IMG/VR virus record: IMGVR_UViG_3300027971_000001
Reading direction: 5' to 3' (one strand)
Length of the DNA stretch: 64,000 nucleotides
DNA from: a virus
Taxonomy: Duplodnaviria > Caudoviricetes
This document shows, one piece after another, positions 6,449-60,421 of this stretch (the stretch's first letter is position 1; each line of letters opens with the position of its first letter). Below the pieces are notes generated by a model. That model was not told where the DNA came from. It saw nothing but the letters and a program-made list of their open reading frames with translations, and searched no databases. The position numbers were made by a program, and so were the translations under genes.

Positions 6449-7225
6449 TTAGACGTTAGAGAAGAAACTTGTATCTAGGTTCAAATCAACAGTTTGCTCA
6501 CCTATTTTCTGGCTGGTTATATTATTTTCCAAATTCTTGATATTTGCAATAAATCCGAGTATCTTTTGAACCAAAGAAGCCGTTAAACTTTCAACTGTCT
6601 TTATATTTTGAGCCACTGTTTGACTTTTAAGATCAATAACAATCGGTTCTTTTTCTGTTAGTTCTATACTGGTTATATACTTGGCAATTTCCAGTATATA
6701 AATTTCACTAAGAAGCTTTTGAATCTTTGAATCATTTTCAAATTCTGCAGAACGATACTTCAGATAGGAATCCAAAGTCTTATTCTCATATTCAATTGTT
6801 GGTACCGAACAGTTAACTGTAATAGGACCTTGAGAAAAAGTTTCATTATATTTTACTTCAATATTTTTATCAAAATTATCCAATATGGTTTGAAGATTTA
6901 CCTCGATATTTTGACCATCCTTTTCAATCTTTTGATTAGGACCAAAAGAATGAACACGCAATGCCAATACAATCAATGCCCGGTCACTAACAAGCATGTT
7001 TTTATCCTCACCATTATCCAAAAGAATGCTGTTTACTGCTTTAGGATACAAGAAAGCTGCCTTAGAACCTGATGCAGCAGCTTCAATCAGATCCTTTTGT
7101 TGCTTGGCAGTAAGCGGTGTGAACTTGCGAGTTTCTTTTTTGCTCAATACAAGACAATCCACCTTGTCTGAATTGGAATACTCTTTTAATTTACTTAAAA
7201 CTTTATCTAAATTGACTTCTGCCAT
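6449..7225 (-). CDS. Baseplate hub assembly protein (gp26-like)
   Basis: KFTPLTAKQQKDL...DRALIVLALRVHSFG resembles gp26. The ATG at 7225 is preferred to the TTG at 7240. Confidence 0.55.
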   Translation of the reverse strand: MAEVNLDKVLSKLKEYSNSDKVDCLVLSKKETRKFTPLTAKQQKDLIEAAASGSKAAFLYPKAVNSILLDNGEDKNMLVSDRALIVLALRVHSFGPNQKIEKDGQNIEVNLQTILDNFDKNIEVKYNETFSQGPITVNCSVPTIEYENKTLDSYLKYRSAEFENDSKIQKLLSEIYILEIAKYITSIELTEKEPIVIDLKSQTVAQNIKTVESLTASLVQKILGFIANIKNLENNITSQKIGEQTVDLNLDTSFFSNV

Positions 7226-8102: not shown

Positions 8103-9026
8103 TTAAAAGAAACCTTGGAAATTCGTAGGCAGATTGGCAGATGTAAAGCTATTTCCATTTTGGAAAGGTGAAACATTCGGAATTGTTCCAGTACTGATTC
8201 GATTAATGATGTTTGGAAGCGGAATATACAGATTGGAATGCACAGTATAATTGGTATAAGTCCAATATGTGGCATATTTCTCATATTCAGTATCAGGAGA
8301 ATAGGTTAAACTTTGGTCAACAAGTCCGGTTGGAACACAATTATAGAATGTCCAAACTTTACGAGGTATTTGACTGACTTTTTGATAAGAACGTGTGTAT
8401 TGAAGAATTGTTACAGTACATTTTATGTTGCGTATATCGTTATCACCACCAGGACGTGCCACAAAACCATAATGACTGGCCAATATTACCCATGGACGAA
8501 TGACCATGTCCATAAAAGATGTGTTTGTTTCTCGAAATTCAATAACAAGAGGCAACCCAGAATACCCTGTTCGGTCACCAGCAATAAGACCTGGAACAAA
8601 TCCTCGATTATTTTTGATTGCTAGATTCTGAACATCATATTTTTCATTAGGAATATTAACTCCTTGAGCAAAAAGACAGCCCACCACCTTTTGGTAAAAG
8701 TAACTTGTTAATATTCCTTTTGGTTGAGAAACGTCCCAACCTTTTTTGTCTCCGCCTACATATTCAAGATTTTGAATAATGTCGGATGAAATAGCCCTTG
8801 GATATGTATCTATCAAAACAACCCATTGACTGTTTAAAGGAATTGAACTGAACCAACTCTCCATTTGTGTCAGGAAATATTCCTGTGCACTGATAAGGGG
8901 AACACCTGGTATATTGAAACCGAAAAGACTGCTTACTTGTGGAGCAAAAAGAGGATTTGTGCCAGTGGCCAAACCACGAATATTACTTCCTAAACTGCGT
9001 ATAGCATCTGTTACTGGATTATTGAT
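8103..9026 (-). CDS. Tail-tube-fold minor protein (gp54/gp19-like); start uncertain (ATC at 9026 or TTG at 8972)
   Basis: IEFRETNTSFMDMVIRPW...KVWTFYNCVP is a tube fold. The frame stays open to 9047, and GGAGG lies 8 nt before the ATC at 9026. Confidence 0.65.
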   Translation of the reverse strand: MNNPVTDAIRSLGSNIRGLATGTNPLFAPQVSSLFGFNIPGVPLISAQEYFLTQMESWFSSIPLNSQWVVLIDTYPRAISSDIIQNLEYVGGDKKGWDVSQPKGILTSYFYQKVVGCLFAQGVNIPNEKYDVQNLAIKNNRGFVPGLIAGDRTGYSGLPLVIEFRETNTSFMDMVIRPWVILASHYGFVARPGGDNDIRNIKCTVTILQYTRSYQKVSQIPRKVWTFYNCVPTGLVDQSLTYSPDTEYEKYATYWTYTNYTVHSNLYIPLPNIINRISTGTIPNVSPFQNGNSFTSANLPTNFQGFF

Positions 9027-10088: not shown

Positions 10089-12452
10089 TTAGGATACCAA
10101 TTCTTGGAAGTCCTGACCAGTTCGTGTGGCATAGAAGTTAACCAAGATGAATTCTGCGGCACGTACAGGTTTGATGTAGATGTCCACAACCAGTTCATTT
10201 TGGTCGATCACATCAGGTGTATTGTTTCTTTCGTCGCATATGATCAGATAGTCATATACACCTTGTGTGTTCTTGGCCAATTCGAATATCGGTGTAAGAA
10301 CGTTTATTACTTGCGTTCTTGTGAACAGTGTATTCGGTTCGAACAAGAAGAACTTGATGGTATTCCTTGTCGCGACTTCCAGATACAAGAACAACCGGCG
10401 TACATTGATACGATCAAATGCGCTTGGTTTCTTTAACAAGGTCTTTTGACCGAAGATTACAAATCCTTCAGCAGGGAAGAATGCAACCGGATTCAAATTA
10501 ACCTTATACAATTGATCACGATGTTTTTGTGTGGGATAGATCGGAAGATCATTCACACCAAGCAATACGCCCCGAGTAAATCCGGCAGGAGCGAACCAAG
10601 GTTGGAAGTTATCGTCAGTATTTGCCATTGCAGCACCTGCAAATCCTGAGAAAGGAACCCATGTTTGCTTGCCTAGACCATCATCAAATACCCTAGGGAA
10701 TGTGGCATATGTACATGCATAGCTTGTGTTCAGCAAGCTGTACAAGTGACGTAATGGCCAGTAAATGTGTTGATTAAAGTTCTTTGATGGATCATCAATA
10801 ACTTTGCTATTTTCACCTTGAACAAAGATGTTACGGAGAGGATCTGCAATGAATAGATGATCTTTGCGAACATTCTGGGCAAAGTTTGTGAATACGCTTG
10901 CCACAGTATTGTAATTTTCGCGAATATCAAGAGCATTTCCATTAAGACCTTCGTTATTAGTAATGAAGAATCCAGTCATATCAAGAGGAATAGTGTCATC
11001 GAACACGTCTGCACCGCTAAGAACATTCAGATTGTAACGGGCAGCTGAGAATATTGTTCCAAGACCACCTTCCAATGACAATGAAAGATTGTAAAGATCA
11101 GGATTTTCAAGCAATGTGAACACACGTTCCAGCTTTGTTGGAACGTTTCCGATTAATTTGGCAGTTGCAACTGTTGTATCGAAAGCACCGAAGCTATAAA
11201 GAGCGTCAATGCGACGAAGAGGACTTGCTACATTGTTGGCCAACCAACCCACAACTGCACTAGGAGCACCCACACGTGTTTCATATGTTGCATTTGTGTC
11301 AACAAATCCATCACTATTCAAAGGATTAGCCAGATTCGGATTCAACATACGAACCTTCTTGTTGGGATTTCCTGCACTATTCAACCATGTTTGTGTATTA
11401 CGATTGCTGATAAAAGGATTGATCAACAATGAAAGATTGGGACTATCATCTTCAACCGATCCTATAAAGAATGTTTGGGCTGGACCGCCGTTTTCGCTAT
11501 TGATTTGACGGAAATAATCAAATGAACCCACATAACTTTCAGACAATAGATAATCTAAACTGATAACATCAGGGGCAAACACGCTTTGGCGGAGTTTGAA
11601 CACACCAAGGATGATTGTATCATCAAACTGGCGTGTGCTGATATCAAAAGTAGGAATATTTTCCATTACTTCACTAACACTGTTTCCAAGACCAAACTGT
11701 GTTGCGCTTAATGGGAAGTTCAAACGAGTACGAGGAACATTCAGGAAGTTGTATGTGGATCCAGCTTTGGAATCAACACTGCGAACTTGACTGATACCAT
11801 CGAATTGTGTGGCAGGATTCAAATTAGTGTTATCAATCGCTCCTACATAATATCCTTCATATTTTTGATTGATGCTGGTTTGAGCTTTGTTAAGAACAAT
11901 CATTCCGGCATTGGCCAATTGTGTAAGTTTGCTGGCGCCTGTGCTGGTGAAGCTGAATTGTGTTGGTACATTTTTCCAACTTGAGAATGCATCACCATTA
12001 AGAATGCTTTGATATTCAGTTGCATTCAATTCAATCTGTGTGGGTTGACCGAAGAAATATGTGTTTGCACCAGAAAGACCAGTACCACCTGTGGCAGCAG
12101 TTCCTTCATATGCTCCATTATAACTGGTTACAGGATAAACAAGAGCAGAGTAAGAATCTGTGAAACCTGCACCGCTTCCGCTACCATATGGCATACGGCT
12201 GACAAGCACTTCTGCTTGGCTTTGGAACATTGCTTTAACAGTGTGATAAAAATAACGTTCAGCCGCATTGGTGGGCTTGCCATAAATTTGTTCAAATTCG
12301 CTAAGACTTGAAGGTTGGATAATTTCATCCAAAGGACCTTGAGGTGCATAACCAGGTATTAAAACCGTTGTGGGAACATTAATTACTGGACGTAATGAAA
12401 GATCTATTTCGTTAATTTCAACACCAGGACTCTGAATTGTACGCTTAGGCAT
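10089..12452 (-). CDS. gp18: Tail sheath protein
   Basis: SPGVEINEIDLS at the N-terminus; PWFAPAGFTRG, GQKTL...SAFDRINVRRLF and FEPN...TR at the C-terminus. Confidence 0.95.
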   Translation of the reverse strand: MPKRTIQSPGVEINEIDLSLRPVINVPTTVLIPGYAPQGPLDEIIQPSSLSEFEQIYGKPTNAAERYFYHTVKAMFQSQAEVLVSRMPYGSGSGAGFTDSYSALVYPVTSYNGAYEGTAATGGTGLSGANTYFFGQPTQIELNATEYQSILNGDAFSSWKNVPTQFSFTSTGASKLTQLANAGMIVLNKAQTSINQKYEGYYVGAIDNTNLNPATQFDGISQVRSVDSKAGSTYNFLNVPRTRLNFPLSATQFGLGNSVSEVMENIPTFDISTRQFDDTIILGVFKLRQSVFAPDVISLDYLLSESYVGSFDYFRQINSENGGPAQTFFIGSVEDDSPNLSLLINPFISNRNTQTWLNSAGNPNKKVRMLNPNLANPLNSDGFVDTNATYETRVGAPSAVVGWLANNVASPLRRIDALYSFGAFDTTVATAKLIGNVPTKLERVFTLLENPDLYNLSLSLEGGLGTIFSAARYNLNVLSGADVFDDTIPLDMTGFFITNNEGLNGNALDIRENYNTVASVFTNFAQNVRKDHLFIADPLRNIFVQGENSKVIDDPSKNFNQHIYWPLRHLYSLLNTSYACTYATFPRVFDDGLGKQTWVPFSGFAGAAMANTDDNFQPWFAPAGFTRGVLLGVNDLPIYPTQKHRDQLYKVNLNPVAFFPAEGFVIFGQKTLLKKPSAFDRINVRRLFLYLEVATRNTIKFFLFEPNTLFTRTQVINVLTPIFELAKNTQGVYDYLIICDERNNTPDVIDQNELVVDIYIKPVRAAEFILVNFYATRTGQDFQELVS

Positions 12453-52051: not shown

Positions 52052-52080
52052 GTTCTACCCAATTATTTTACAAATGTCCA
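52052..52080 (-). promoter_or_regulatory. Conserved early promoter, copy 1
   Basis: TGGACA-TTTGTAAAATAATTGGG-TAGAAC-N6-ATG. Confidence 0.75.
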
Positions 52081-52087
52081 GCTTTAT

Positions 52088-52279
52088 TTAAATTATTCCT
52101 AGGGACTCTGCAACATTCCAAGCATGGTCATAAGCTTTATCGCTAGGATTATTGTCGGTAATCTCAACATCCATTTCTCCGTCTCCGTAGTATCTGACAT
52201 ATGCATTATGCACTCGTCCTTCATGTTCAAATTGAAACTGCTTTGATTCTTTTACTGGTTCATCAAATTTATTTTTCAT
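52088..52279 (-). CDS. Hypothetical protein
   Basis: 63 aa, leaderless from promoter copy 2; shares the MKNK start with the 52045 ORF. Confidence 0.6.
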   Translation of the reverse strand: MKNKFDEPVKESKQFQFEHEGRVHNAYVRYYGDGEMDVEITDNNPSDKAYDHAWNVAESLGII

Positions 52280-52285
52280 AAAATT

Positions 52286-52314
52286 GTTCTATCGAATTAT
52301 TTCACAAATGTCAA
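52286..52314 (-). promoter_or_regulatory. Conserved early promoter, copy 2
   Basis: TTGACA-TTTGTGAAATAATTCGA-TAGAAC-N6-ATG. Confidence 0.8.
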
Positions 52315-52315
52315 T

Positions 52316-52606
52316 TCAATTCTTTTTAAAAGGATGTTTGGTATCGACAACCATATTATTCTTTGGATTATTCCTTATCTCTTTTTCACTTTGCCTATCT
52401 GGTGCTCCTATAAGATAACCCAATGCTCCACCGCCCACCATGGTAACTGCCCACATTCCTCCACCACCTCCGCACACGCTACCCACCACCATGCCCACCA
52501 CCACATCGTTCAATGCTTCACCATCCCAACTGAACAACTCCGTATCTGCCCTTAATGGTAAAGATATGGCAATTGTTGAAAAGATTATATATTTTAAGTA
52601 TCTCAT
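52316..52606 (-). CDS. Glycine-zipper membrane protein
   Basis: Signal-like N-terminus; VGMVVGSVCGG...VGGGALGYLIG. Confidence 0.55.
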   Translation of the reverse strand: MRYLKYIIFSTIAISLPLRADTELFSWDGEALNDVVVGMVVGSVCGGGGGMWAVTMVGGGALGYLIGAPDRQSEKEIRNNPKNNMVVDTKHPFKKN

Positions 52607-53094
52607 GGAATCTTGATGGGTTTGCCACAGATGGGGTCAAAGATAACTTCTCCGCTATCCATGTTCATGCTGGATGGGTCAAAGGTGAAACGGCTGTAAG
52701 GAGACTGAACCATCTTGCCCTTTTTGATTCCCAGCTTGGGTATGGTTTTATAATCCATGCCACTTGATGTATTCATGCTTGCCATCTGTTGTTGATACGC
52801 CATCTGCTGTTGCATCATTTGCTGATGATATGCCATTTGCTGTTGTTGCATCTTTGTATCCACCACCTGACCTTGTTGAGATTGGGCAGTTCCATATGCT
52901 CCACCTGCCATCGCTCCCAACAATCCTCCGACCAGCTTGGCATCGCTTCCTTTGCTGATCATGGGGGCAATCAATGCTCCCAACAATCCTCCCACCACCA
53001 TATCGGTAGGAGTTCCGCTTCCGCTTTGAATGTTAATCATTCCTTGGGCTTGAATTGAGGCGGGCAAAAGCAAACATAGTAGTAGTTTTTTCAT
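52603..53094 (-). CDS. Secreted glycine-zipper protein with a Gln/Met-rich linker
   Basis: Signal peptide; GGLLGALI...GGLLGAMAGGAYG; C-terminal VQSPY...DPICGKPIKIP. Confidence 0.7.
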   Translation of the reverse strand: MKKLLLCLLLPASIQAQGMINIQSGSGTPTDMVVGGLLGALIAPMISKGSDAKLVGGLLGAMAGGAYGTAQSQQGQVVDTKMQQQQMAYHQQMMQQQMAYQQQMASMNTSSGMDYKTIPKLGIKKGKMVQSPYSRFTFDPSSMNMDSGEVIFDPICGKPIKIP

Positions 53095-53100
53095 GCTTCC

Positions 53101-53129
53101 TTTCTATGGAATTATTTCACAAATGTCAA
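53101..53129 (-). promoter_or_regulatory. Conserved early promoter, copy 3
   Basis: TTGACA-TTTGTGAAATAATTCCA-TAGAAA-N6-ATG. Confidence 0.8.
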
Positions 53130-53159
53130 GAAAAAATATGGCATATCCCTTTTGGGCTA

Positions 53160-53855
53160 TTATGCATTCTCCCTACACATACGAGAGTCTTCATCTGCCT
53201 CATCATTTTCTCTTTTATCCTCTTCATATGTATTGATACCCAATTCTTCACAAAGTTCATCGGGAACATCTTTGTGTTCGGTATAACATTCATCATCAAC
53301 TTTACCATTTGGATAAAAATGGTAAGTGCCAAAGAATCCATATCCCTCATCCATATAAGTGAGCCGAACAATCTTATTCAGTTTTACTGCCAATTCCTGT
53401 AATGCTGGTTCGGGTGGACTCCACGCTGTTTGGAAAAACAACTGCTCGTTATCATCTTTGTCAACGCCACCCCAGCGTGTTTCATAAGTGTTCCATTTGG
53501 TTCCCCAGTATTTCACACTCCAGTCATACCATCCAGTCACACCATAAAGCTTCTTGCACTTGTCTGATAATTTCTTTTGTTTAATATCAATTTTCTTTCG
53601 TTCCTGTGCTGTGCGTTTCGTCATAAGAAAACCCACATCACTAAACTTTGATGTTTCCAAAATATATTTTGGCATAGGAACAATCTTGTTCAAATCCAAA
53701 AAGATGCTGTTTTGCAAATCCTCTTCATTCTCGGTTATCATCACCAATCCGTCCTTCTCACTTGTTGTGTTTTCAGTGGAAAGGAAAGGACGCAATAATC
53801 CTTGGATATGTTTTTCGCCCACGATGGTTAGTAGATTTGTTGTATGATTTGGCAT
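53160..53855 (-). CDS. YubB/DUF1281-like ferredoxin-fold protein
   Basis: MPNH, WYDW...WGTKWN, FQTAWSPP. Confidence 0.75.
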   Translation of the reverse strand: MPNHTTNLLTIVGEKHIQGLLRPFLSTENTTSEKDGLVMITENEEDLQNSIFLDLNKIVPMPKYILETSKFSDVGFLMTKRTAQERKKIDIKQKKLSDKCKKLYGVTGWYDWSVKYWGTKWNTYETRWGGVDKDDNEQLFFQTAWSPPEPALQELAVKLNKIVRLTYMDEGYGFFGTYHFYPNGKVDDECYTEHKDVPDELCEELGINTYEEDKRENDEADEDSRMCRENA

Positions 53856-53861
53856 AGATTT

Positions 53862-53890
53862 GTCCTAGAGAATTATTATCAAAATGTCAA
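53862..53890 (-). promoter_or_regulatory. Conserved early promoter, copy 4
   Basis: TTGACA-TTTTGATAATAATTCTC-TAGGAC-N6-ATG. Confidence 0.8.
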
Positions 53891-53893
53891 GCA

Positions 53894-54259
53894 TCATTTT
53901 ATAAATGTTTTTAGGAAAGTATAATCATCATCCCACTTCATTCGATATTCAGTGAATCCTTCATCATTTTCAGGAACCAACCACTCCCGCAAATCCTTCA
54001 CCACTTCATCATCAATTTTTGTTTTGAGCGGATAACATGTATCTGATTCTTTACTATCAACCCAATCGTTGCTATATAATTTTCCTTCGCCCAGAATCTC
54101 CCAGATATCATTATCCCCTTCCAGGTCACCTTTGCATAAACTTTCTTGATAATATTCTGATACTATATGGTCACCATTATGATGAGCACATGCCACTCCA
54201 CCATGTTCTGTGACAATGACACAATCCGTTTCCCCGCAATCAAACAACACATATTTCAT
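53894..54259 (-). CDS. Hypothetical acidic protein
   Basis: 121-aa ORF in the early run. Confidence 0.55.
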   Translation of the reverse strand: MKYVLFDCGETDCVIVTEHGGVACAHHNGDHIVSEYYQESLCKGDLEGDNDIWEILGEGKLYSNDWVDSKESDTCYPLKTKIDDEVVKDLREWLVPENDEGFTEYRMKWDDDYTFLKTFIK

Positions 54260-54319
54260 TTTATATTATATGAAATGGGGGTTAGTAACTTCCCCCCATC
54301 TCGTGTCGTGCCTCCGAGG

Positions 54320-54784
54320 TTAAACTTTAGTGAAGGTCAATGCCGTGGTCACCTTGCCACGAATCACCCTCTTCGTTCTTCCTTTCAAATCGGACACGAT
54401 CTGTTCGCAATCCAATTTGAAGTTTTTGACCTTGCTTTGGTCTTCGTCCATAGCCCGTCCAATAGCCCGTGTAAGAGCTTTGGGACTGACTTCTTGGGCG
54501 AGCTGATACACGATGCTAGCCCAAGGGATTTCCGCCACCACCATCTGTTCCTGCGGATTTCCTTTGCGAATCCCACCCTGCACACGCAGGGTAAAATCAA
54601 TGTTATAGTTTCCTGCTGGCACCAAATCATTGATATGGTCACTCAACTCCCTTGTGCTACCTTTCACAAGAGCCAGCAGTTCCACGCTGGACAGGTTTTC
54701 GTTGTTGCCTTCCCCACCATAGGGAATGTTGGGCATTTGCGGGGGAACTTCAATTCCGCCCACATTCTCGATTGCTTTTGCCAC
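54320..54784 (-). CDS. Hypothetical protein
   Basis: 154 aa, GTG start; GC-richer codons; hairpin at 54275-54299 downstream. Confidence 0.65.
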   Translation of the reverse strand: MAKAIENVGGIEVPPQMPNIPYGGEGNNENLSSVELLALVKGSTRELSDHINDLVPAGNYNIDFTLRVQGGIRKGNPQEQMVVAEIPWASIVYQLAQEVSPKALTRAIGRAMDEDQSKVKNFKLDCEQIVSDLKGRTKRVIRGKVTTALTFTKV

Positions 54785-54873
54785 TTGCCACCTACTTTCT
54801 GATCTCTGCTTTGGTCTGCTTGGGTTTGGCTATCGCCTCTGCCCTTTGCTTTCCTTTGCTTTGATCTTGCTCA

Positions 54874-54902
54874 ACGCTACTAAATTATTTCCAAAATGTC
54901 AA
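54874..54902 (-). promoter_or_regulatory. Conserved early promoter, copy 5
   Basis: TTGACA-TTTTGGAAATAATTTAG-TAGCGT, followed by a long purine-rich leader. Confidence 0.75.
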
Positions 54903-55255
54903 ACCTTTTTTTCCAATTCTTTTTCCAGCTTGGTTGGAGGTTGACCCATCCATCTTTCGGGTTTGATATGGCAGAACCAATCTTGGATAGTTGGTATGCG
55001 TCCCATATCTTCCAGCACATGCTGTTCGCCAATGAATCGGACTGGCACTTTGCGACCATCGCTATTGGTAATTGTCGTGCCAAAGATTCTTTCGCAAGTG
55101 AAGATTCCTTCGGCATGATGACGCAGGGCACGATGACGAAAATCCGCATACATCTTTTTGCTTTCATCAAACCAATCATGGATGGCTTGATAATCTTCGG
55201 GTTTGCCCCCGTATTTTCTTACACTACTTACTGAATGATGATAAGGATGAGCCAT
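54899..55255 (-). CDS. DUF6915-like His-rich protein
   Basis: MAHPYHHS.SS..KYGG..EDY..IHDWFD.SK...RHRALRHH.EGIF. Confidence 0.7.
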   Translation of the reverse strand: MAHPYHHSVSSVRKYGGKPEDYQAIHDWFDESKKMYADFRHRALRHHAEGIFTCERIFGTTITNSDGRKVPVRFIGEQHVLEDMGRIPTIQDWFCHIKPERWMGQPPTKLEKELEKKV

Positions 55256-55266
55256 TGTATTCTCCT

Positions 55267-55656
55267 TTATAGTTCGTGTTCGCTATATACAGTTTCTTGA
55301 ATATAGTTGTTATGTTCCATTTTGATGGTGCGTTCAGCCACATCAAATATGATTTCACCATATCCACCTTCATTGTTGTAGAAACCACTTTCTTCATCTT
55401 CAATCTTTTCCCAAGTGAAGGTATCAAGATAACTGCGTAATGTTTCTTTCTCATTTAATTGTTCATCCAACAATTTATGTAGCTTATCAGGTATGGTGGT
55501 CATATCATCAGTCTGACCACTATCTCCGCTACCACTATAATGAACCTTCAACACTTGGATTCCTAATGCTTTAAGGAAATCAAAAAGCGTCTTACGTTCT
55601 GCGGATTCCTGCGGTTCGGGTAACTCGACTGTTGCAACTTGTTTTTTCTTTCTCAT
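55267..55656 (-). CDS. DUF6878-like protein
   Basis: YSGSGDSG...NNEGGYG; start refined to ATG 55656 (TTGCTA-17-TACAAA-N6-ATG). Confidence 0.65.
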   Translation of the reverse strand: MRKKKQVATVELPEPQESAERKTLFDFLKALGIQVLKVHYSGSGDSGQTDDMTTIPDKLHKLLDEQLNEKETLRSYLDTFTWEKIEDEESGFYNNEGGYGEIIFDVAERTIKMEHNNYIQETVYSEHEL

Positions 55657-55721
55657 GTTTCCTTTGTATTGGATTTTTTTCAAAATAGCAAGATTTATTT
55701 ACAAAATCTTTTTCGACCAGG

Positions 55722-55744
55722 ATAGATTATTTGCAAAATGTCAA
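55722..55744 (-). promoter_or_regulatory. Conserved early promoter, copy 6 (poor -10)
   Basis: TTGACATTTTGCAAATAATC. Confidence 0.55.
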
Positions 55745-55825
55745 GCATATAATAAAAAGTTTTCATCAACTTTTTTTCTTTACATTTTTTTAAAAATATG
55801 TTATTTGGCAAATAAATAATCTTAT

Positions 55826-55930
55826 ATGCTAATGAGTATTATTGGATATGCATTGGCCGGTTACTTGGCCAGTGCTTTTGTTAGTGTGGCAATTGGTGTG
55901 ATCATGAATCGTAGTGAACATGAAAAATGA
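55826..55930 (+). CDS. 34-aa membrane peptide (not in ORF track)
   Basis: MLMSIIGYALAGYLASAFVSVAIGVIM...; TAAATA 7 nt upstream. Confidence 0.5.
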   Translation: MLMSIIGYALAGYLASAFVSVAIGVIMNRSEHEK

Positions 55931-56022
55931 TTGATTTGGTTTTTGCTATTACCATTTTCACATTAATTGTCTTGTTGTTTGCAAAATATTGATATCCTTC
56001 TCGGCCATGATAGAGTGGGTTC

Positions 56023-56202
56023 ATGATCAACAATCCGTGGGACTTGCCCGAACATGATGAATTGCCAGAGAATAAGTTTTATCTGGGCAGTATGAATGTG
56101 GACAAAGGCGACAAAGATGATGAAGTGACACCAGAAGAAATGGAAAAGATTAGCAAGTTTCTGGAAAGTATAAATCCATTAATAAATCCTCCCAATGATT
56201 AA
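56023..56202 (+). CDS. 59-aa acidic peptide (not in ORF track)
   Basis: MINNPWDLPEHDELP...; overlaps the next ORF. Confidence 0.45.
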   Translation: MINNPWDLPEHDELPENKFYLGSMNVDKGDKDDEVTPEEMEKISKFLESINPLINPPND

Positions 56203-56314
56203 TACAATAATCTCTGCAGTTCTGGGAATTATATTCAGTATTATTGTTCCAGTATCAGTATTGTTGTTTGGAATATTTTTTGTTTATGAAGTGTTCATAC
56301 GTTTTAGAAAATAA
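56195..56314 (+). CDS. 39-aa membrane peptide (not in ORF track)
   Basis: MINTIISAVLGIIFSIIVPVSVLLFGIFFVYEVFIRFRK. Confidence 0.45.
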   Translation: MINTIISAVLGIIFSIIVPVSVLLFGIFFVYEVFIRFRK

Positions 56315-56414
56315 TATACAAACACATGCATCAAGGGCAAACTTTTCTAATAGACCGGCAAGACGAATTTTTGGTCAGACCGCAAATTATTTTGATACTA
56401 TCCTTGGTAAGAAG

Positions 56415-56666
56415 TTAATAACTGAAGCACAACTCGTTGCTGATCCAAGGATGCTTTGTGATGATGTAGTTCATTCGGTTAACGATATGATAACCTGCAC
56501 CGATTCTCAACTTGCCATCACAATCCAGTAGTGTCCATATGTGGTTATGTTTTGTTTCTATAATCCTGTTCAGATCATCTCCATATGTTTCAAAAAGAAT
56601 ACTGCCATCATCCCGTGTTAAGGGTTGATAATGCTTTTCGAATGTGCTGTATCTACCCGCCCTCAT
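56415..56666 (-). CDS. Hypothetical protein
   Basis: FETYG, HIWTLLD, GYHIVNR; ATGA coupling. Confidence 0.6.
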   Translation of the reverse strand: MRAGRYSTFEKHYQPLTRDDGSILFETYGDDLNRIIETKHNHIWTLLDCDGKLRIGAGYHIVNRMNYIITKHPWISNELCFSY

Positions 56667-56902
56667 GAAGTGAACTCCGCATCTTCACACTGATCAACAT
56701 ATTGTTTGTTTAATGCCCAGTTTGATATGAACCGAAGACCACAACTATCCTCAAAAGTCTTCTTTAATTTTGAGATATGAAGGACGCTGTACTCACTTGA
56801 TTGAGCTTCTCTTCGTTGTTCCTCTGATTCAATCAGATAGATTTTGTGACATCCATCATAAGCAAAATGCTTTGCAGATATTTCTATATTATTGATCTTC
56901 AT
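56663..56902 (-). CDS. Hypothetical protein
   Basis: FAYDGCHKIYL...SCGLRFI. Confidence 0.6.
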   Translation of the reverse strand: MKINNIEISAKHFAYDGCHKIYLIESEEQRREAQSSEYSVLHISKLKKTFEDSCGLRFISNWALNKQYVDQCEDAEFTS

Positions 56903-56904
56903 GT

Positions 56905-57183
56905 TTAATTAACCCCCACGCCATAATAGTAATCGCTGGTCTTATCTCTTGCTATTTTAAGACGCTGGCGAACCACATGGGCATTGAGTTCCAGTCCACT
57001 GCTTTCAATAAGCTCATCCAACACGCAACTGCTGATGAGTTTCTTGGCGGTGGTATGTGCTTCTTTATCCACATACTGATTGGGTTCTACGATATCCATC
57101 ACAGCTTGCTCAAGGATTGCTTTAAGCAACAGCCCTGCTGGATCATCGACTACTCTTACTTGATTTGCTTGCATCATTTTCAT
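56905..57183 (-). CDS. Hypothetical protein
   Basis: LLKAILEQAVMD; downstream of promoter copy 7. Confidence 0.6.
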   Translation of the reverse strand: MKMMQANQVRVVDDPAGLLLKAILEQAVMDIVEPNQYVDKEAHTTAKKLISSCVLDELIESSGLELNAHVVRQRLKIARDKTSDYYYGVGVN

Positions 57184-57191
57184 ATGCGAGC

Positions 57192-57220
57192 AGGTTGCCG
57201 AATTATTTGCAAAATGTCAA
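57192..57220 (-). promoter_or_regulatory. Conserved early promoter, copy 7
   Basis: TTGACA-TTTTGCAAATAATTCGG-CAACCT-N8-ATG. Confidence 0.7.
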
Positions 57221-57239
57221 GATTATATTTTATAAAAAT

Positions 57240-57355
57240 AGTTCCTTCTCCTGCCAGACATTGTCTGACTCTGTTTCGGGAAACAAACACAACCCTCAAC
57301 ATGAACAACACATTCTGAGCCAACCACCACAGGTGATTGAACAGGAGAAAGAACT
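57240..57355 (-). ncRNA. Candidate 116-nt structured RNA (element B)
   Basis: 14-bp closing stem with one G-U, internal hairpins, own promoter, AUUUUU tail. Confidence 0.65.
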
Positions 57356-57394
57356 AAACTGATGTTAAAGTATGGCTAAAAGAAATCAAGTGGC

Positions 57395-57565
57395 TCAAAC
57401 CAAATCTGTCAGCTTTTCCAACAAAGTATCTGATGCACTATCTGCTTCAATGTCGAATGTATCAAGCAATTCCCGAAACACAATAGAACTCAAACGACTA
57501 TCATCCAGAACCAAATAACCAATGTGGATCAACAAATCTTTTTCTTTGTCTGTGAAATTTTCCAC
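57395..57565 (-). CDS. 56-aa acidic helical protein (not in ORF track)
   Basis: GTG start after AAGGA; FTDKEKDLLIHIG...ELLDTFD...LLEKLTDLV. Confidence 0.5.
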   Translation of the reverse strand: MENFTDKEKDLLIHIGYLVLDDSRLSSIVFRELLDTFDIEADSASDTLLEKLTDLV

Positions 57566-57718
57566 ATAAATAGTTATCCTTTTTCAAATCATTTTTTGAT
57601 TTTCTTAGTTCGGATAATCTTAAAAACAGCTTTGGGCTTCGGTTTAAAACGACAACGATTACATGGTCTTGGCATGGTACCTTTGTAACATCTGGGCACC
57701 AAGCGTCAACAGATTTCT

Positions 57719-57949
57719 TCAGAGCTCTAGAAACGAAATTTCGAAACCAAATCCCAGAATGCGTATGGTGAAAACTTTCCCATACTCATAAGTGTGATAT
57801 GTGATTGTGGTGCGCAGATCTAGATCCAGCCCGTAACTGCAGCCATCGTATTCTCCGTAATAGCGGCGTAACAAAATTTCAAACGGGTGAAACCATTTTG
57901 TCATGCGGCAGTAATTATTTTTTTTCATCCGGTTTCTCCCAGGGAACAA
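57719..57949 (-). CDS. Hypothetical protein
   Basis: C-terminal FTIRILGFGFEI. Confidence 0.4.
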   Translation of the reverse strand: MFPGRNRMKKNNYCRMTKWFHPFEILLRRYYGEYDGCSYGLDLDLRTTITYHTYEYGKVFTIRILGFGFEISFLEL

Positions 57950-58193
57950 TGTCTTTGTTTTTCAAATTCAGGTAAACATACTCAGGATTCAGGACCGGAT
58001 TACCATGTGGATCTGTGTATGTACGGTGTATCAAATCGTATTTGTATCCGTGGTCCGTGAGATAATCAAACACGTCTTGATTATATTTAAAACTATTCTT
58101 TTTTGTTTTTACTTCCTCGAAGTCTTCGTGTCCCCAGAATTTGGTGAAATATGTTTTGTAGATGCTGTCTACAATATCACCAAACTCGTCCAT
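57915..58193 (-). CDS. Hypothetical protein
   Basis: 92 aa; coupled to the upstream lipoprotein gene. Confidence 0.5.
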   Translation of the reverse strand: MDEFGDIVDSIYKTYFTKFWGHEDFEEVKTKKNSFKYNQDVFDYLTDHGYKYDLIHRTYTDPHGNPVLNPEYVYLNLKNKDIVPWEKPDEKK

Positions 58194-58666
58194 TATTTTA
58201 CGTAACTGGAGGTGGCGCTCACGCAGCCATCTGCAATCGCGTTAAGAACTTTGAGGGCCAGTGCTGGATCATTTCCAATTTGCCCGTAAAGATTGCGATA
58301 CACGTCGCTAAGACTGGCAGCGAAGTTTGTCCAATGTGTTTTCTCCGGGAGAAAATTAGCCACAGCTTCATCCAGGTCGTCTGCAGATGGTACAGATCCA
58401 CTGCTCAAACTACGAACCACATTAGCAACATCATGAATCATCTTGGCTTTGGTAATGCGATCTTCGGGGCTGACAGCTCCTTCAAGTACTGCTGTGCAGG
58501 CGAGGTTAACTGCAGGTTTCACATATGGAAGTGCCTGCTCGATCTTTTGTTGGACTGTGGTTCCGCCAGTTGATCCGGATCCACCTCCGCCGTTATTGGT
58601 GGCACAGCTGGATAGAAGCATTGCGAAGGGTAAAGGAAGTAACCATTTGAGTAGTTCATTAATCAT
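58193..58666 (-). CDS. Lipoprotein
   Basis: Signal peptide with lipobox LSSC, Gly/Ser linker; TAAATA 5 nt upstream. Confidence 0.75.
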   Translation of the reverse strand: MINELLKWLLPLPFAMLLSSCATNNGGGGSGSTGGTTVQQKIEQALPYVKPAVNLACTAVLEGAVSPEDRITKAKMIHDVANVVRSLSSGSVPSADDLDEAVANFLPEKTHWTNFAASLSDVYRNLYGQIGNDPALALKVLNAIADGCVSATSSYVK

Positions 58667-58927
58667 GAAAGTATTTACCGCCTGTCAGTCCAAAACAACA
58701 ATTCTTGCCAAAATAAAATATATAATCTTTTTTATTTGAATAAATCTTTAAGGGCTTCCATCCAATTGAACCCCACATCCCCTGCATTTTCCATCAACAA
58801 CAATTCCTCTTCACTTGGTGTGTGGTCTTCTCTCATCACCTTGTGTTTGGAATTTCTTTTGTCCACAACCATATGTATCTCACGGGTTATGGAAAAATCA
58901 ATTATTTTAATTATTTTTTATATTTTT

Positions 58928-59314
58928 TTATCGAAACATGCTGTTTCGGCTTCGTTTGCCATCAACCTTGCTGGTATCATAGTCATGACATCTGCTTGGA
59001 TTCAATCCCAGTGCCCGCATTACACTCTTCCATCCGTCTCCATGGCCATCGTCTCCGAAAACCTTATAAGCAACAAGATGTGCCACTTCATGAGGAATGG
59101 TATCATTCATGAAATCCTCAATATTCTCTTTGCATAGCTGTTCATTCAGTTGGATACGCCATTGCTGTAGCCATGCACGACCTGCAGTGCTGCCAATGAT
59201 TACCCATTCCAATTTGGGAAAATCGAACTCGGCACCATACTCCTCGTTCAGCTCTTCCAGAACCTGCCACACCCGATGAGTGGCTCGTTCTTTCATGGCT
59301 GTAACATCAAGCAT
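58928..59314 (-). CDS. SprT-like zinc metalloprotease
   Basis: GSTAGRA, LNEQL, TIPHEVAHL (HExxH), GHGDGWK.VM. Confidence 0.9.
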   Translation of the reverse strand: MLDVTAMKERATHRVWQVLEELNEEYGAEFDFPKLEWVIIGSTAGRAWLQQWRIQLNEQLCKENIEDFMNDTIPHEVAHLVAYKVFGDDGHGDGWKSVMRALGLNPSRCHDYDTSKVDGKRSRNSMFR

Positions 59315-59495
59315 CTGGCTTGTTTCCCCATTCTGGATTCCAGTCCGATTGAACCTGCTTGGTCTTTTCTTCCATCACCATCATTTTGTATCGGCATGTG
59401 GCTTCCACCAAGAATATCTCAATGGCTTGCATGGTTTCGCTATCCACATCTGATAATATTTCCTTCTCTAGTTTTTTGCTTAATCTGTTGTTCAT
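59307..59495 (-). CDS. Hypothetical protein
   Basis: Start refined to ATG 59495, 6 nt after the -10 of promoter copy 8. Confidence 0.55.
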   Translation of the reverse strand: MNNRLSKKLEKEILSDVDSETMQAIEIFLVEATCRYKMMVMEEKTKQVQSDWNPEWGNKPDA

Positions 59496-59501
59496 GTTGC
59501 T

Positions 59502-59530
59502 AGCTTGGTCAATTATTTCACAAATGTCAA
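59502..59530 (-). promoter_or_regulatory. Conserved early promoter, copy 8
   Basis: TTGACA-TTTGTGAAATAATTGAC-CAAGCT-N6-ATG. Confidence 0.75.
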
Positions 59531-59540
59531 TATTAAAAAT

Positions 59541-59754
59541 AGTTCTTCGACCCTCTACGCTCATGATTTCGTAAAGGAATATCCTGCTCCTCTTTCGCCT
59601 CTGACTCTGGGCGTTGGCAGGTTCATCCTCTTATGGGAGCTAGTCAGACTCGCCAAGAGAAGTGTTGGCGTTCCGTTATACATAACCAATGTCTCCATTG
59701 GAAACTTTCCAGAACTGCAACCTTTCGGTCAACCTTCTCCGATATCGAAGAACT
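59541..59754 (-). ncRNA. Candidate 214-nt multi-domain structured RNA (element A)
   Basis: Perfect 10-12-bp closing stem, GNRA-capped hairpins, possible pseudoknots, own promoter, AUUUUU tail. Confidence 0.75.
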
Positions 59755-59797
59755 ATACGCTTTGTATACTATCTGATTTTATTGTCAATAATAAAAG

Positions 59798-59870
59798 AGC
59801 CGGATGTCGGATTTGAACCGACGACCTGCGGTTTACAAAACCGCTGCAACTACCGCTGTGCTAATCCGGC
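59798..59870 (-). tRNA. trnT: tRNA-Thr (UGU)
   Basis: GCCGGAT/ATCCGGC; GCGGT-TTTGTAA-ACCGC; GGTTCAAATCC. Confidence 0.95.
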
Positions 59871-59872
59871 AT

Positions 59873-59955
59873 TGGGCAGAAGTGGATTCGAACCACTGAA
59901 GGCGTGAGCCAGGAGATTTACAGTCTCCCCCGTTTGTCCACTTCGGTATCTGCCC
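59873..59955 (-). tRNA. trnY: tRNA-Tyr (GUA)
   Basis: GGGCAGA/TCTGCCC; GGAGA-CTGTAAA-TCTCC; long variable arm. Confidence 0.95.
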
Positions 59956-59996
59956 ATGATTATTATATATTCTATTTTTTTAAAAATAAATGATTG

Positions 59997-60069
59997 TGGG
60001 CAAAGAGGGATTCGAACCCCCAACCAAGGCATTATGAGTGCCCTGCTCTAACCGTTGAGCTATTTGCCC
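59997..60069 (-). tRNA. tRNA with CAU anticodon (Ile2 or elongator Met)
   Basis: GGGCAAA/TTTGCCC; CTCATAA loop; paired 1:72, so not initiator; C4:G69 is compatible with Ile2. Confidence 0.9.
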
Positions 60070-60072
60070 AAA

Positions 60073-60163
60073 TACCTCCGATTGGATTCGAACCAATATT
60101 GCGCCCTCATCTAGGGCTTCACGAGTATAAGTCGTGGGTCTTAACCAGTTAGACGACGGAGGC
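60073..60163 (-). tRNA. tRNA with UAU anticodon (Ile?) and a 22-nt variable region
   Basis: GCCTCCG/CGGAGGT; CACGA-CTTATAC-TCGTG; GCCCT-AGATG-AGGGC variable arm; ATTGG-TTCGAAT-CCAAT; 91 nt. Confidence 0.85.
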
Positions 60164-60169
60164 AAAGCT

Positions 60170-60421
60170 CTACGCCGTCTTTTCTATTCGAGTCTGGTGT
60201 TTGAATGGGGGCTTCCATACATAACTGCCCCACATCTTCATCTTTAATTGTTGTTTGGCTTGCTTGAATGCTTTGGGCTTCATCTTCTTTGATCGCATTC
60301 GGGCTTCTTCAATCACACATTCTTCCTGCACTTTACCACTAAACTTTTTAAGACAACGAGCAAACGAATCGTTGCTTTGTCTTTCCCTTTCACTTACCTT
60401 CATGTTTACTCGGTCTACCAT
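60170..60421 (-). CDS. rpsU: Phage-encoded ribosomal protein bS21
   Basis: FARCLKKFSGKVQEECVIEEARMRSKKMKPKAFKQAK aligns with bS21 F..AL..F......V..E.R.R....KP....K.AK; small and basic. Confidence 0.75.
   Translation of the reverse strand: MVDRVNMKVSERERQSNDSFARCLKKFSGKVQEECVIEEARMRSKKMKPKAFKQAKQQLKMKMWGSYVWKPPFKHQTRIEKTA

Follow-up and report, generated by a model that had tools for sequence, protein, structure and literature searches.

Two segments on the minus strand of a phage genome fragment, which share their first and last nucleotides, raise the question of whether they belong to one family of small-RNA cassettes, as a first-pass annotation proposed, or to distinct types of RNA, and what such RNAs might do. 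The window, i.e. the whole 64-kb stretch of DNA analysed here, comes from an uncultured freshwater T4-like myovirus (its TerL protein is T4-like), and both elements are present in it as described. We call the 214-nt RNA (element A of that annotation) LONG and the 116-nt RNA (element B) SHORT. They are independent structured RNA genes, which is backed by covariation and by in-register promoters. With moderate confidence, we regard them as representatives of two RNA families that have only a closing helix in common, the LONG one being most likely a self-associating RNA.

Two independent structured RNA genes

The SHORT transcript, running from position 57355 to 57234, starts with AGUUCUU and ends with GGAACUAUUUUU. 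Its 5' and 3' ends pair over 15 bp (P1, RNA positions 1-15 with 102-116), and the RNA is predicted to fold into a four-way junction with a single unpaired base, made up of P1, hairpin P2, helix P3 with two hairpins inside it, and hairpin P4 (fold z-score of -5.6). A covariance model (R1) scores 14 homologous loci at 86-131 bits. The fold is well preserved among homologues, with 99.1% of cells paired and 12 pairs showing compensatory changes; none of 500 shuffles was as good, and slid controls reached 35-54% pairing. The stem under the invariant loop of hairpin P3b (Table 1) covaries, as GGG/CCC, CGG/CCG, CCCUG/CAGGG, CCCAG/CUGGG and CCUG/CAGG.

The LONG transcript, from 59754 to 59535, also begins with AGUUCUU and terminates with AGAACUAUUUUU. 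Its ends form an 11-bp helix (P1, RNA positions 1-11 with 204-214), its fold has a z-score of -3.9, and its homologues, 88-100% identical, are found in two phage clades.

Table 1. Positions of the two RNA elements and of neighbouring features in the window
Feature	Position	Strand	Remarks
Early promoter core copy	57201..57220	-	13 nt past the SHORT U-tract
SHORT RNA	57234..57355	-	122 nt including U-tail; fold, homologues and covariation
Invariant GUGUUUG, loop of SHORT hairpin P3b	57284..57290	-	RNA 66-72; unchanged in 11 homologues
SHORT promoter	57356..57389	-	TTGATT (57389-57384), 16 nt, TAACAT (57367-57362), 6 nt, +1 at 57355
Early promoter core copy	59511..59530	-	4 nt past the LONG U-tract
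LONG RNA	59535..59754	-	220 nt including U-tail; arm-bearing allele of the MID/LONG family
Hairpin Hd	59552..59577	-	Stem covaries, with compensatory pairs; loop palindrome UCAUGA at 59561-59566
Hairpin Hc: GCC, 10-nt loop CAGAGUCNGA, GGC	59597..59612	-	Invariant (except N) in 30/30 unique members
Ha loop UGACU	59642..59646	-	RNA 109-113; invariant in 30 unique members; stem covaries
5' arm, LONG only	59657..59740	-	RNA 15-98; long helix and two hairpins with GNRA loops; none in MID alleles
LONG promoter	59755..59788	-	TTGACA (59788-59783), 16 nt, TACAAA (59766-59761), 6 nt, +1 at 59754
tRNA cluster Ile-UAU, Met, Tyr, Thr	59797..60164	-	Directly upstream of LONG, same strand; gap of 43 nt

Both elements have the common promoter geometry initially noted, a sigma-70-type promoter in register with the RNA start. 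SHORT homologues retain the -35/-10 pair in the same register. Similarly, in 75 distinct contexts upstream of LONG and of its shorter alleles (called MID, see below), a -35 box and a TAnnAT -10 box always lie in register before the A of AGUUC. The promoter plus AGTTC pattern is weak evidence when taken alone, as it is found at these two sites alone in 64 kb but two or more matches also turn up in 12 of 100 shuffles. A generic promoter and terminator scan flagged neither the promoters nor the closing helices, and its sites were no more numerous than in shuffles.

A repeated early promoter is represented by eight good copies on the minus strand, a count that none of 100 shuffles reached, and one copy follows each RNA gene, in agreement with the first-pass annotation. 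A clear U-tract is missing in 40 of the 141 copies of the MID/LONG RNA, many of them MID; their 3' ends may therefore arise by processing.

Transcription, presumed at the outset, is supported for LONG, which is covered in RNA libraries, with contigs in four lake metatranscriptome runs from four studies. Their depth reaches thousands, against 0-9 on flanking genes, although the depth of assembled contigs is a poor measure of expression. One RNA-library contig corresponds exactly to positions 59537-59755, with unrelated flanks. Another, from an RNA run, overshoots both ends of LONG by 26-34 nt, as would be expected of read-through or of carried-over DNA but not of a clean primary transcript. For SHORT, the RNA libraries contain a single contig, of low depth, that spans the predicted start.

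The elements were proposed to be new, and indeed neither matches any Rfam family. In a search of the whole window with Rfam 15 at the gathering score, tRNAs alone pass the threshold, and a search of positions 57150-59830 with E values up to 10 yielded only noise at 12-19 bits. BLAST against public phage genomes returned tRNA and SprT matches only, with no cultured phage carrying SHORT or LONG.

The MID/LONG family and its genomic slot

Exact substrings of LONG retrieved only members at least 87% identical to it, and the family was opened up by MID, an RNA found at the orthologous slot. Using a search anchored on hairpin Hc, we recovered the family in two phage clades, from 38 viral contigs and from freshwater metagenomes, in which at least 119 contigs carry it. 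The 104 MID (129-138 nt) and 38 LONG (214-216 nt) occurrences correspond to 85 unique sequences, all closely related, so that these counts do not represent independent events. We defined the core of the family by the Ha loop UGACU, hairpin Hc (GCC-CAGAGUCNGA-GGC) and hairpin Hd, within helices P1 and P2. Among MID sequences, 92.5% of the cells are paired and 15 pairs show compensatory changes; none of 500 shuffles did as well, and slid controls gave 40-52% pairing. LONG contains this core: it was aligned with 21 MID sequences, and its 3' core is matched by the MID-only covariance model (R2) at 43 bits (E value of 1e-9).

LONG is a MID RNA with an additional 84-nt arm, found at the same locus with an identical promoter upstream. 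The loops of the two arm hairpins vary but remain of the GNRA type (GAAA, GCAA or GUAA in one; GAGA, GAAA or GCAA in the other), and the second hairpin shows three independent compensatory pairs. The idea of a scaffold carrying a payload, put forward for the two elements together, is therefore literally correct within the LONG family, but SHORT falls outside that family. Two other interpretations of LONG were discarded. A coding role is not retained, as its internal 45-aa and 21-aa ORFs are preserved neither in the second clade nor in MID, and a CsrA-type sponge would require a GGA motif that varies in the LONG hairpin loop (GAGA, GAAA, GCAA).

The core pattern was also sought in bacterial genomes. 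Two matches were found, with spacers longer than those of the family; they probably arose by chance, and they give no pointer to a prophage or a host.

The RNAs of this family tend to be encoded close to tRNAs. A same-strand tRNA gene is present within 2 kb in 105 of the 142 occurrences, and within 50 nt in 42 of them. The same genomic slot is empty in some genomes and contains MID or LONG in others, and close relatives are devoid of the RNA. A direct repeat, which comprises the -35 box of the repeated promoter, lies on either side of the cassette, homology to the second clade ends exactly at the RNA ends, and there is one copy per genome.

Loops that may pair between molecules

The loop of hairpin Hd has 7-10 nt, with a mismatch (A-G or G-A) closing it, and contains a 6-nt palindrome. 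Across the family it reads UCUAGA, UCAUGA, UCCGGA, GUCGAC or GUGCAC; double substitutions thus keep it self-complementary. The single exception, UCUAGG, can still self-pair via G-U. That this loop changes only from one palindrome to another points to self-pairing between molecules. In addition, the UGACU loop of Ha and the AGUC of the Hc loop are complementary to each other. Both loops are invariant, which places their pairing beyond the reach of covariation. A longer, 7-bp helix considered earlier (UCUGACU/AGUCAGA) was rejected, since GACU/AGUC alone is invariant and its flanks change without compensation. Taken together, the covarying palindromic loop and the complementary invariant loops suggest that MID/LONG molecules pair with each other. 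The Hd palindrome may also act at the DNA level.

The dimer initiation site (DIS) of HIV-1 is a hairpin whose loop carries a 6-nt palindrome, including GUGCAC, that occurs only as self-complementary variants and mediates homodimerization. The Hd loop of MID/LONG resembles it in carrying a 6-nt palindrome, GUGCAC among its variants, but the dimer is a predicted one here and the context is unrelated. Motifs of RNA dimers have been reviewed (PMC7357161).

The following mode of action can be proposed. The two separate small-RNA genes lie in the variable early/tRNA region, and a sigma-70-type promoter of its own would drive each of them, with the A of AGUUC as the first nucleotide. Each RNA would end after the closing helix formed by its 5' and 3' ends, which may hide the ends from nucleases, such that the RNA accumulates. 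MID/LONG molecules would then, most likely, self-associate as kissing homodimers and possibly as higher assemblies. This would make them abundant and dispensable structured RNAs of the ROOL/GOLLD kind.

ROOL and GOLLD are phage RNAs encoded near tRNA islands that are abundant, non-essential and homo-oligomeric; they have no known protein partner, and loop contacts mediate their self-association (PMC12286853). MID/LONG is likewise phage-encoded, adjacent to tRNAs and found at high depth in RNA libraries, and its conserved 3' region with a variable 5' region recalls GOLLD (PMC12286853). However, ROOL and GOLLD range from ~580 to >800 nt, against 129-216 nt for MID/LONG, which has no Rfam match and, unlike them, possesses its own promoter and a closing helix. 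Their oligomers have been observed, whereas that of MID/LONG is predicted from the palindromic loop.

Paired ends are also a feature of another phage RNA. The pRNA of phage phi29, of ~120 nt, has 5' and 3' ends that form a helix, and it multimerizes via intermolecular loop-loop pairing that covaries; small podoviruses cannot package their DNA without it. In contrast, the phage analysed here, a T4-like myovirus, has a normal large terminase, and close relatives lack the RNA.

A more elaborate version of self-association is conceivable, although we consider it rather unlikely. MID/LONG might form an RNA-only ring or cage, made in abundance during infection of lake bacteria, and, as a separate matter, the closing helix shared by the two unrelated RNA families might be a common end-recognition element for a phage or host factor. 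The Hd palindrome would join two molecules, the UGACU/AGUC contacts would link molecules hand in hand instead of forming within one, and the GNRA arm of LONG would provide an additional docking contact.

ROOL, GOLLD and RNAC/RNAD of T4 are abundant, conserved phage RNAs of tRNA islands whose function has remained unexplained for decades. MID/LONG would be a much smaller RNA of that kind (130 nt) and hence easier to study. It forms a clean promoter-to-terminator unit with natural alleles that have or lack the arm, the covariation of its loop predicts a specific dimer interface, and its size is suitable for cryo-EM, crystallography and synthetic genetics.

SHORT compared with LONG, and competing readings

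The first-pass annotation had placed both elements in a single family. Our covariance models argue against this: the SHORT and MID models do not detect each other's RNAs, and their distributions differ. The SHORT model (R1) gave no match to LONG or MID with E values up to 10, and the MID model (R2) did not match SHORT even with filters off. SHORT was found only among close relatives of the window phage. Two pattern scans of viral contigs, the first of which returned mostly chance matches, yielded further members in the window clade alone, and SHORT is missing from a complete 172-kb genome that has LONG.

The AGUUCUU start and the GAACU end are found in both elements as announced (the ends being AGAACU and GGAACU), and GAACTATTTTT occurs exactly at the SHORT and LONG sites only. 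Since the shared ends pair together, the 5' 7-mer and the 3' GAACU represent one feature and not two. SHORT and MID have almost the same closing helix, with 11 of 12 bases shared (AGUUCUUUCC with GGAAAGAAYU) and the outer nine bases invariant in each family. As for the internal 10-mer said to be common to both, CAGAGTCAGA is indeed present exactly at 57264-57273 and 59600-59609 and nowhere else; for two RNAs of such lengths, our own arithmetic predicts ~0.02 10-mers in common. It does not hold up as a common motif, however. In LONG and MID it forms the invariant loop of hairpin Hc, but in SHORT it extends over parts of P3 and P4 and differs between homologues (CAGGGUCGGU, CUGGGUCAGU and others).

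The closing helix is nevertheless an argument for the original proposal, i.e. one family of early small-RNA cassettes in which a protein-binding closing helix carries varied payloads that counter host defence by acting as decoys, sponges or guides. We regard this as doubtful. The addition of an arm to MID to give LONG would agree with it, and accessory or counter-defence genes typically show such presence or absence at a single slot. However, in addition to the failure of the models to cross-detect, one relative has the full MID/LONG core on a different, unrelated closing helix, and thus the core does not require the shared helix. Reading of the SHORT and LONG sequences revealed no tandem repeat units like those of RNA anti-CRISPRs or ToxI mimics, and no partner protein co-occurs with the RNAs in the neighbourhoods inspected. 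In five related records, further RNAs with the same ends were no more numerous than in a reversed-pattern control. Regarding complementary targets in the window, the best is a 12-nt match between a SHORT loop and the ORF at 8103-8972; chance alone would give ~0.1 matches of this kind, and the loop bases concerned are not conserved.

Another explanation concerns the DNA around the RNAs. T4-like phages have PeSLs, stem-loops that precede repeated early promoters, flank variable genes and mediate insertions and deletions (PMC2839356, PMC4122927). The shared ends might then be a stem-loop of this terminator/promoter type homogenized by recombination, and the RNAs by-products, elaborate terminators or insulators. 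Both elements directly precede one of the early promoter copies and coincide with an indel boundary, the phage belongs to the group known to have PeSLs (PMC4122927), and the repeat that bounds the cassette contains the -35 box. We nonetheless find this improbable. Neither element is the usual short hairpin, as the stem-loop encloses a conserved structured RNA of 100-200 nt with its own promoter upstream in every copy. Such a stem-loop is present at only two of the eight early promoter copies, the other six being devoid of it, and in the second clade no early promoter follows the RNA. Moreover, the internal helices covary, the internal loops are invariant, and depth in RNA libraries is well above that of the neighbours.

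T4 itself encodes two small stable RNAs, RNAC and RNAD (species 1 and 2; 139 and 119 nt, respectively), at the downstream end of its tRNA cluster. They are cut from the tRNA precursor. The elements described here could be divergent relatives of RNAC/RNAD or tRNA-like RNAs processed in this manner; their position matches that in T4, the phage is T4-like and sizes are similar, the four-way junction of SHORT is reminiscent of a cloverleaf, and a tRNA-Leu gene lies immediately upstream of SHORT in relatives. This nevertheless appears very unlikely. The SHORT and MID models give no score on rnaC and rnaD of T4, and neither of them detected any similarity in sequence or structure; T4 rnaC ends with a tRNA-like T-arm that is absent here. 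Both SHORT and MID/LONG have their own promoters, whereas RNAC and RNAD are precursor-cut. Finally, ARAGORN and the Rfam tRNA model (RF00005) called neither element, and neither has the T-loop and anticodon loop of a tRNA cloverleaf; the P4 loop of SHORT has 3-4 nt.

The least credible reading is that of MITE-like DNA elements whose RNA fold is incidental: terminal inverted repeats of 10-15 bp, a homology to the second clade that stops exactly at the ends and a variably occupied slot are in line with it, but the closing helix contains G-U pairs that work only as RNA of this strand, compensatory changes affect the inner closing helix and all internal helices, there is no target-site duplication apart from the promoter repeat, and with a single copy per genome, neither dispersed copies nor a transposase for these ends were seen.

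The cassettes probably move between genomes via recombination at the repeated terminator/promoter units, in a PeSL-like manner. In the variable regions of T4-like phages, cassettes that are shuffled include RNA genes in addition to ORFs, and phages that are otherwise alike but have an empty, MID or LONG slot could readily be compared to find the function of the RNA.

Two RNA families with a common closing helix

The first-pass annotation had presented SHORT and LONG, RNAs of 116 and 214 nt, as one undescribed family of phage small-RNA cassettes. Its observations were confirmed, and its interpretation is partly right: SHORT and MID/LONG, the latter uniting LONG with an armless 129-138-nt form that we called MID, are two RNA families with a closing helix in common. 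The promoter geometry is borne out on the minus strand, with TTGATT, 16 nt, TAACAT, 6 nt and AGUUCUU for SHORT, which ends with GGAACUAUUUUU, and TTGACA, 16 nt, TACAAA, 6 nt and AGUUCUU for LONG, which ends with AGAACUAUUUUU. In the 64 kb, the shared 10-mer CAGAGTCAGA has exact copies at these two elements only, as does the 11-mer GAACTATTTTT, and a copy of the early promoter (20-bp core) indeed follows each RNA. The 5' and 3' ends pair together and thus constitute a single feature, a closing helix of 15 bp (SHORT) or 11 bp (LONG). With z-scores of -5.6 (SHORT) and -3.9 (LONG), the two RNAs are better folded than shuffled controls, and neither matches any Rfam family, even at E values up to 10.

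The single-family claim does not hold. The SHORT model scores neither LONG nor MID, the MID model gives SHORT no score, filters off included, and the distributions of SHORT and MID/LONG differ. Nor is the 10-mer a common motif: in MID/LONG it forms a hairpin loop that never varies, but it is variable in SHORT homologues, where it corresponds to the 3' strand of helix P3 and the 5' strand of P4. The shared termini are real, as the closing helices of SHORT (AGUUCUUUCCCC) and MID (AGUUCUUUCCGC) have 11 of 12 bases in common and their 3' strands match, which holds even where the two RNAs are on a single contig. In either family, the nine outermost bases never vary, and the inner pairs covary. Candidate explanations for this identity are an expression platform inherited from a common ancestor, recombination between cassettes that homogenised the helix, and a factor that binds the ends of both RNAs. 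In a distant member, the complete MID core is closed by a longer helix of unrelated sequence; therefore, the core does not depend on the shared helix sequence. This copy (L120) lacks the AGUUC start, has no obvious promoter in register and is placed among protein-coding genes of another phage type.

Relatives of SHORT were collected via the neighbouring SprT-like gene, and the RNA is present in twelve of these loci at 71-99% identity. In its curated structure, the closing helix P1 joins P2, P3 and P4 in a four-way junction that leaves one base unpaired; pairing holds in 99.1% of cells, with 12 compensatory pairs (reached by 0 of 500 shuffles; slid controls 35-54%). P3 encloses two hairpins, one variable and the other with a covarying stem and a loop containing invariant GUGUUUG. 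SHORT is confined to the clade of the window phage and was not found in a 172-kb complete genome from a second clade. Its support in RNA libraries is thin: one low-depth contig from one run, which spans the predicted start. A 12-nt complement of a SHORT loop occurs in the window, with ~0.1 expected by chance and the loop partly non-conserved; the complementarity search within the window yielded nothing convincing as to RNA targets, and no recurrent partner protein was seen in the neighbourhoods read around either RNA. These results neither favour nor contradict the decoy or sponge role suggested in the first-pass annotation. In relatives L010 and L011, a tRNA-Leu(UAA) lies upstream of SHORT, its end 34 nt away. 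At the corresponding position the window retains just the final bases of this tRNA (uuugagcca), joined to the end of a small ORF, apparently a remnant of a tRNA gene since lost or replaced.

Locations of the RNAs and associated features
Feature	Location	Strand
LONG	window 59535-59754	-
SHORT	window 57234-57355	-
Early promoter core TTGACATTTnnnAAATAATT, eight copies flanking small ORFs	window 52061-59530	-
tRNA-Ile, anticodon UAU, 93 nt (ARAGORN)	window 60072-60164	-
83-aa ORF just upstream of the tRNA cluster	window 60170-60421	-
Last bases of tRNA-Leu	window 57372-57400	-
12-nt complement of the SHORT loop UGUGUUUGUUUC	window 8520-8531, inside ORF 8103-8972	-
tRNA-Leu(UAA) upstream of SHORT in relatives	L010:5926-5999	
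MID and SHORT in one relative	L140 (OGWG01000160.1) 6700-6900 and 10797-10908	+ and -
MID core on a different, longer closing helix (GGUGAACAAUCCUACCCG...)	L120:112-256, IMGVR_UViG_3300022752_000063	-
ORF insertions in the tRNA cluster	L006:2706-3283, L007:2849-3423, L014:3062-3604, L019:2168-3283, L015:2022-2744	

Extent and organisation of MID/LONG

LONG first appeared limited to near-identical relatives. Contigs on LONG were found in four lake metatranscriptomes from four studies; one corresponds exactly to 59537-59755, with unrelated flanks and 11 differences, among them a compensatory pair and loop changes from one GNRA to another. In one run, the depth of a 60-nt contig on LONG was 1680 and 5527 versus 0-9 on the flanking genes, these being assembled-contig depths, a measure on which the tool itself cautions. 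A scan of viral contigs revealed LONG in a second phage clade at 88-96% identity, at another locus and with a different promoter. Some relatives of the window phage harbour in the orthologous slot, behind the same promoter, a 129-131-nt RNA, MID, that has the 3' two-thirds of LONG in common; in others the slot is empty. LONG is thus MID with an 84-nt arm (RNA 15-98), a long helix bearing two hairpins, placed between helix P2 and hairpin Ha. The two loops remain GNRA (GAAA/GCAA/GUAA and GAGA/GAAA/GCAA), and the distal stem of the arm has three independent compensatory pairs.

A scan anchored on the invariant core extended the family to 38 viral contigs and, in freshwater metagenomes, to at least 119. 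Among the matches listed, 142 occurrences have resolved ends (104 MID and 38 LONG; 85 unique sequences). In the curated MID structure, 92.5% of cells are paired, with 15 compensatory pairs (reached by 0 of 500 shuffles; slid controls 40-52%). A MID-only model detects the LONG core of the window at 43 bits (E 1e-9) and, in four related records, finds a single copy per genome. The core pattern has two matches only in 185,579 bacterial and archaeal genomes, both probably due to chance since their spacers are longer than those of the family, and BLAST searches of public phage genomes found MID/LONG in no cultured phage. The MID/LONG phage RNA is self-complementary and widespread, and has no Rfam match.

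The 75 distinct upstream 45-mers have a TTGACA- or TTGCAC-like -35 box, a 17-nt spacer and a TAnnAT -10 box spanning -12 to -7 relative to the A of AGUUC, often with a TG extension, and identical promoters precede MID and LONG alleles. A U-rich tract lies past the closing helix in 101 of 141 copies among the matches listed. In some of the other copies a tRNA begins 8-10 nt downstream, and hence some 3' ends may be processing products; both RNA termini are deduced positions.

Conserved loops and putative self-association

Three loops of MID/LONG hold conserved information, those of hairpins Ha, Hc and Hd. The Ha and Hc loops are invariant (UGACU and CAGAGUCNGA, respectively). Since GACU and AGUC are complementary, a loop-loop contact between them is possible, within or between molecules; as neither loop ever varies, covariation gives no signal on this pairing. 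Hd has a covarying stem, and its A-G or G-A closing mismatch swaps along with the closing pair. Among 47 distinct Hd sequences, the loop contains a 6-nt palindrome, UCUAGA, UCAUGA or UCCGGA, with GUCGAC or GUGCAC in a subgroup with an enlarged loop; the lone exception, UCUAGG, keeps self-pairing through G-U. At the palindrome centre, all four self-complementary dinucleotides are found, and the other twelve are absent. A 6-nt loop is unable to pair within its own hairpin, and a DNA-binding protein would not demand a self-complementary centre. The simplest reading of these sequences is therefore a kissing homodimer, in which two RNA molecules would be joined via the Hd palindrome. The two GNRA loops of the LONG arm could supply additional docking contacts.

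Genomic setting, mobility and related phage RNAs

The window, which comes from an uncultured freshwater myovirus, has genes for a tail sheath protein, a ribonucleotide reductase and a large terminase 32-39% identical to those of the T4-like phages Cr30 and phiM9 and of cyanomyophages, and both RNAs are present on one 205-kb metagenome contig. When empty and filled slots were compared, a direct repeat, CTATTTT(T)AWTATTGACA, was seen at both boundaries of the cassette; it is made of the tail of the previous element and the -35 box of the repeated early promoter. This repeat matches PeSLs, composite terminator/promoter units that shuffle genes in T4-like phages (PMC2839356, PMC4122927), and such boundaries account for the early promoter following both RNAs. 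Eight good copies of this promoter are found on the minus strand, a count reached by 0 of 100 shuffles, and they flank small ORFs in a layout reminiscent of the hyperplastic regions that PeSLs mediate in T4-like phages. In one relative (L140), MID and SHORT are 4 kb apart on opposite strands, unlike in the window; the two cassettes have thus rearranged independently.

LONG is found 43 nt downstream of a four-gene tRNA cluster on the same strand, and a same-strand tRNA is present within 2 kb in 105 of 142 MID/LONG occurrences among the matches listed. ROOL and GOLLD are phage RNAs near tRNA islands that reach rRNA-level abundance, are dispensable and form homo-oligomers (PMC12286853). By analogy, we regard MID/LONG as an object of the same kind, the likeness lying in its proximity to tRNAs and in a contig depth in RNA libraries far over that of its neighbours. 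RNAC and RNAD of T4 have the same genomic position in T4-type phage, and the SHORT and MID models each detect no similarity to them.

The tRNA-Ile(UAU) of the cluster, adjoining a tRNA-Met(CAU), is unusually long for an Ile tRNA, and a length of 91-94 nt is kept in both phage clades. The 83-aa ORF, initially annotated as bS21, has only a weak S21 match (TIGR00030, E 0.002, 17.9 bits, under the 28.95 cutoff) and no Pfam match; it may code for a divergent S21-like protein. In relatives, the tRNA cluster is broken by inserted ORFs of 150-240 aa, several of them Cys-rich (CKECG...CxxC), which recall the segB homing endonuclease within the T4 tRNA cluster. The tRNA set also differs among relatives, with Glu, Asn, Lys and Leu tRNAs gained or lost.
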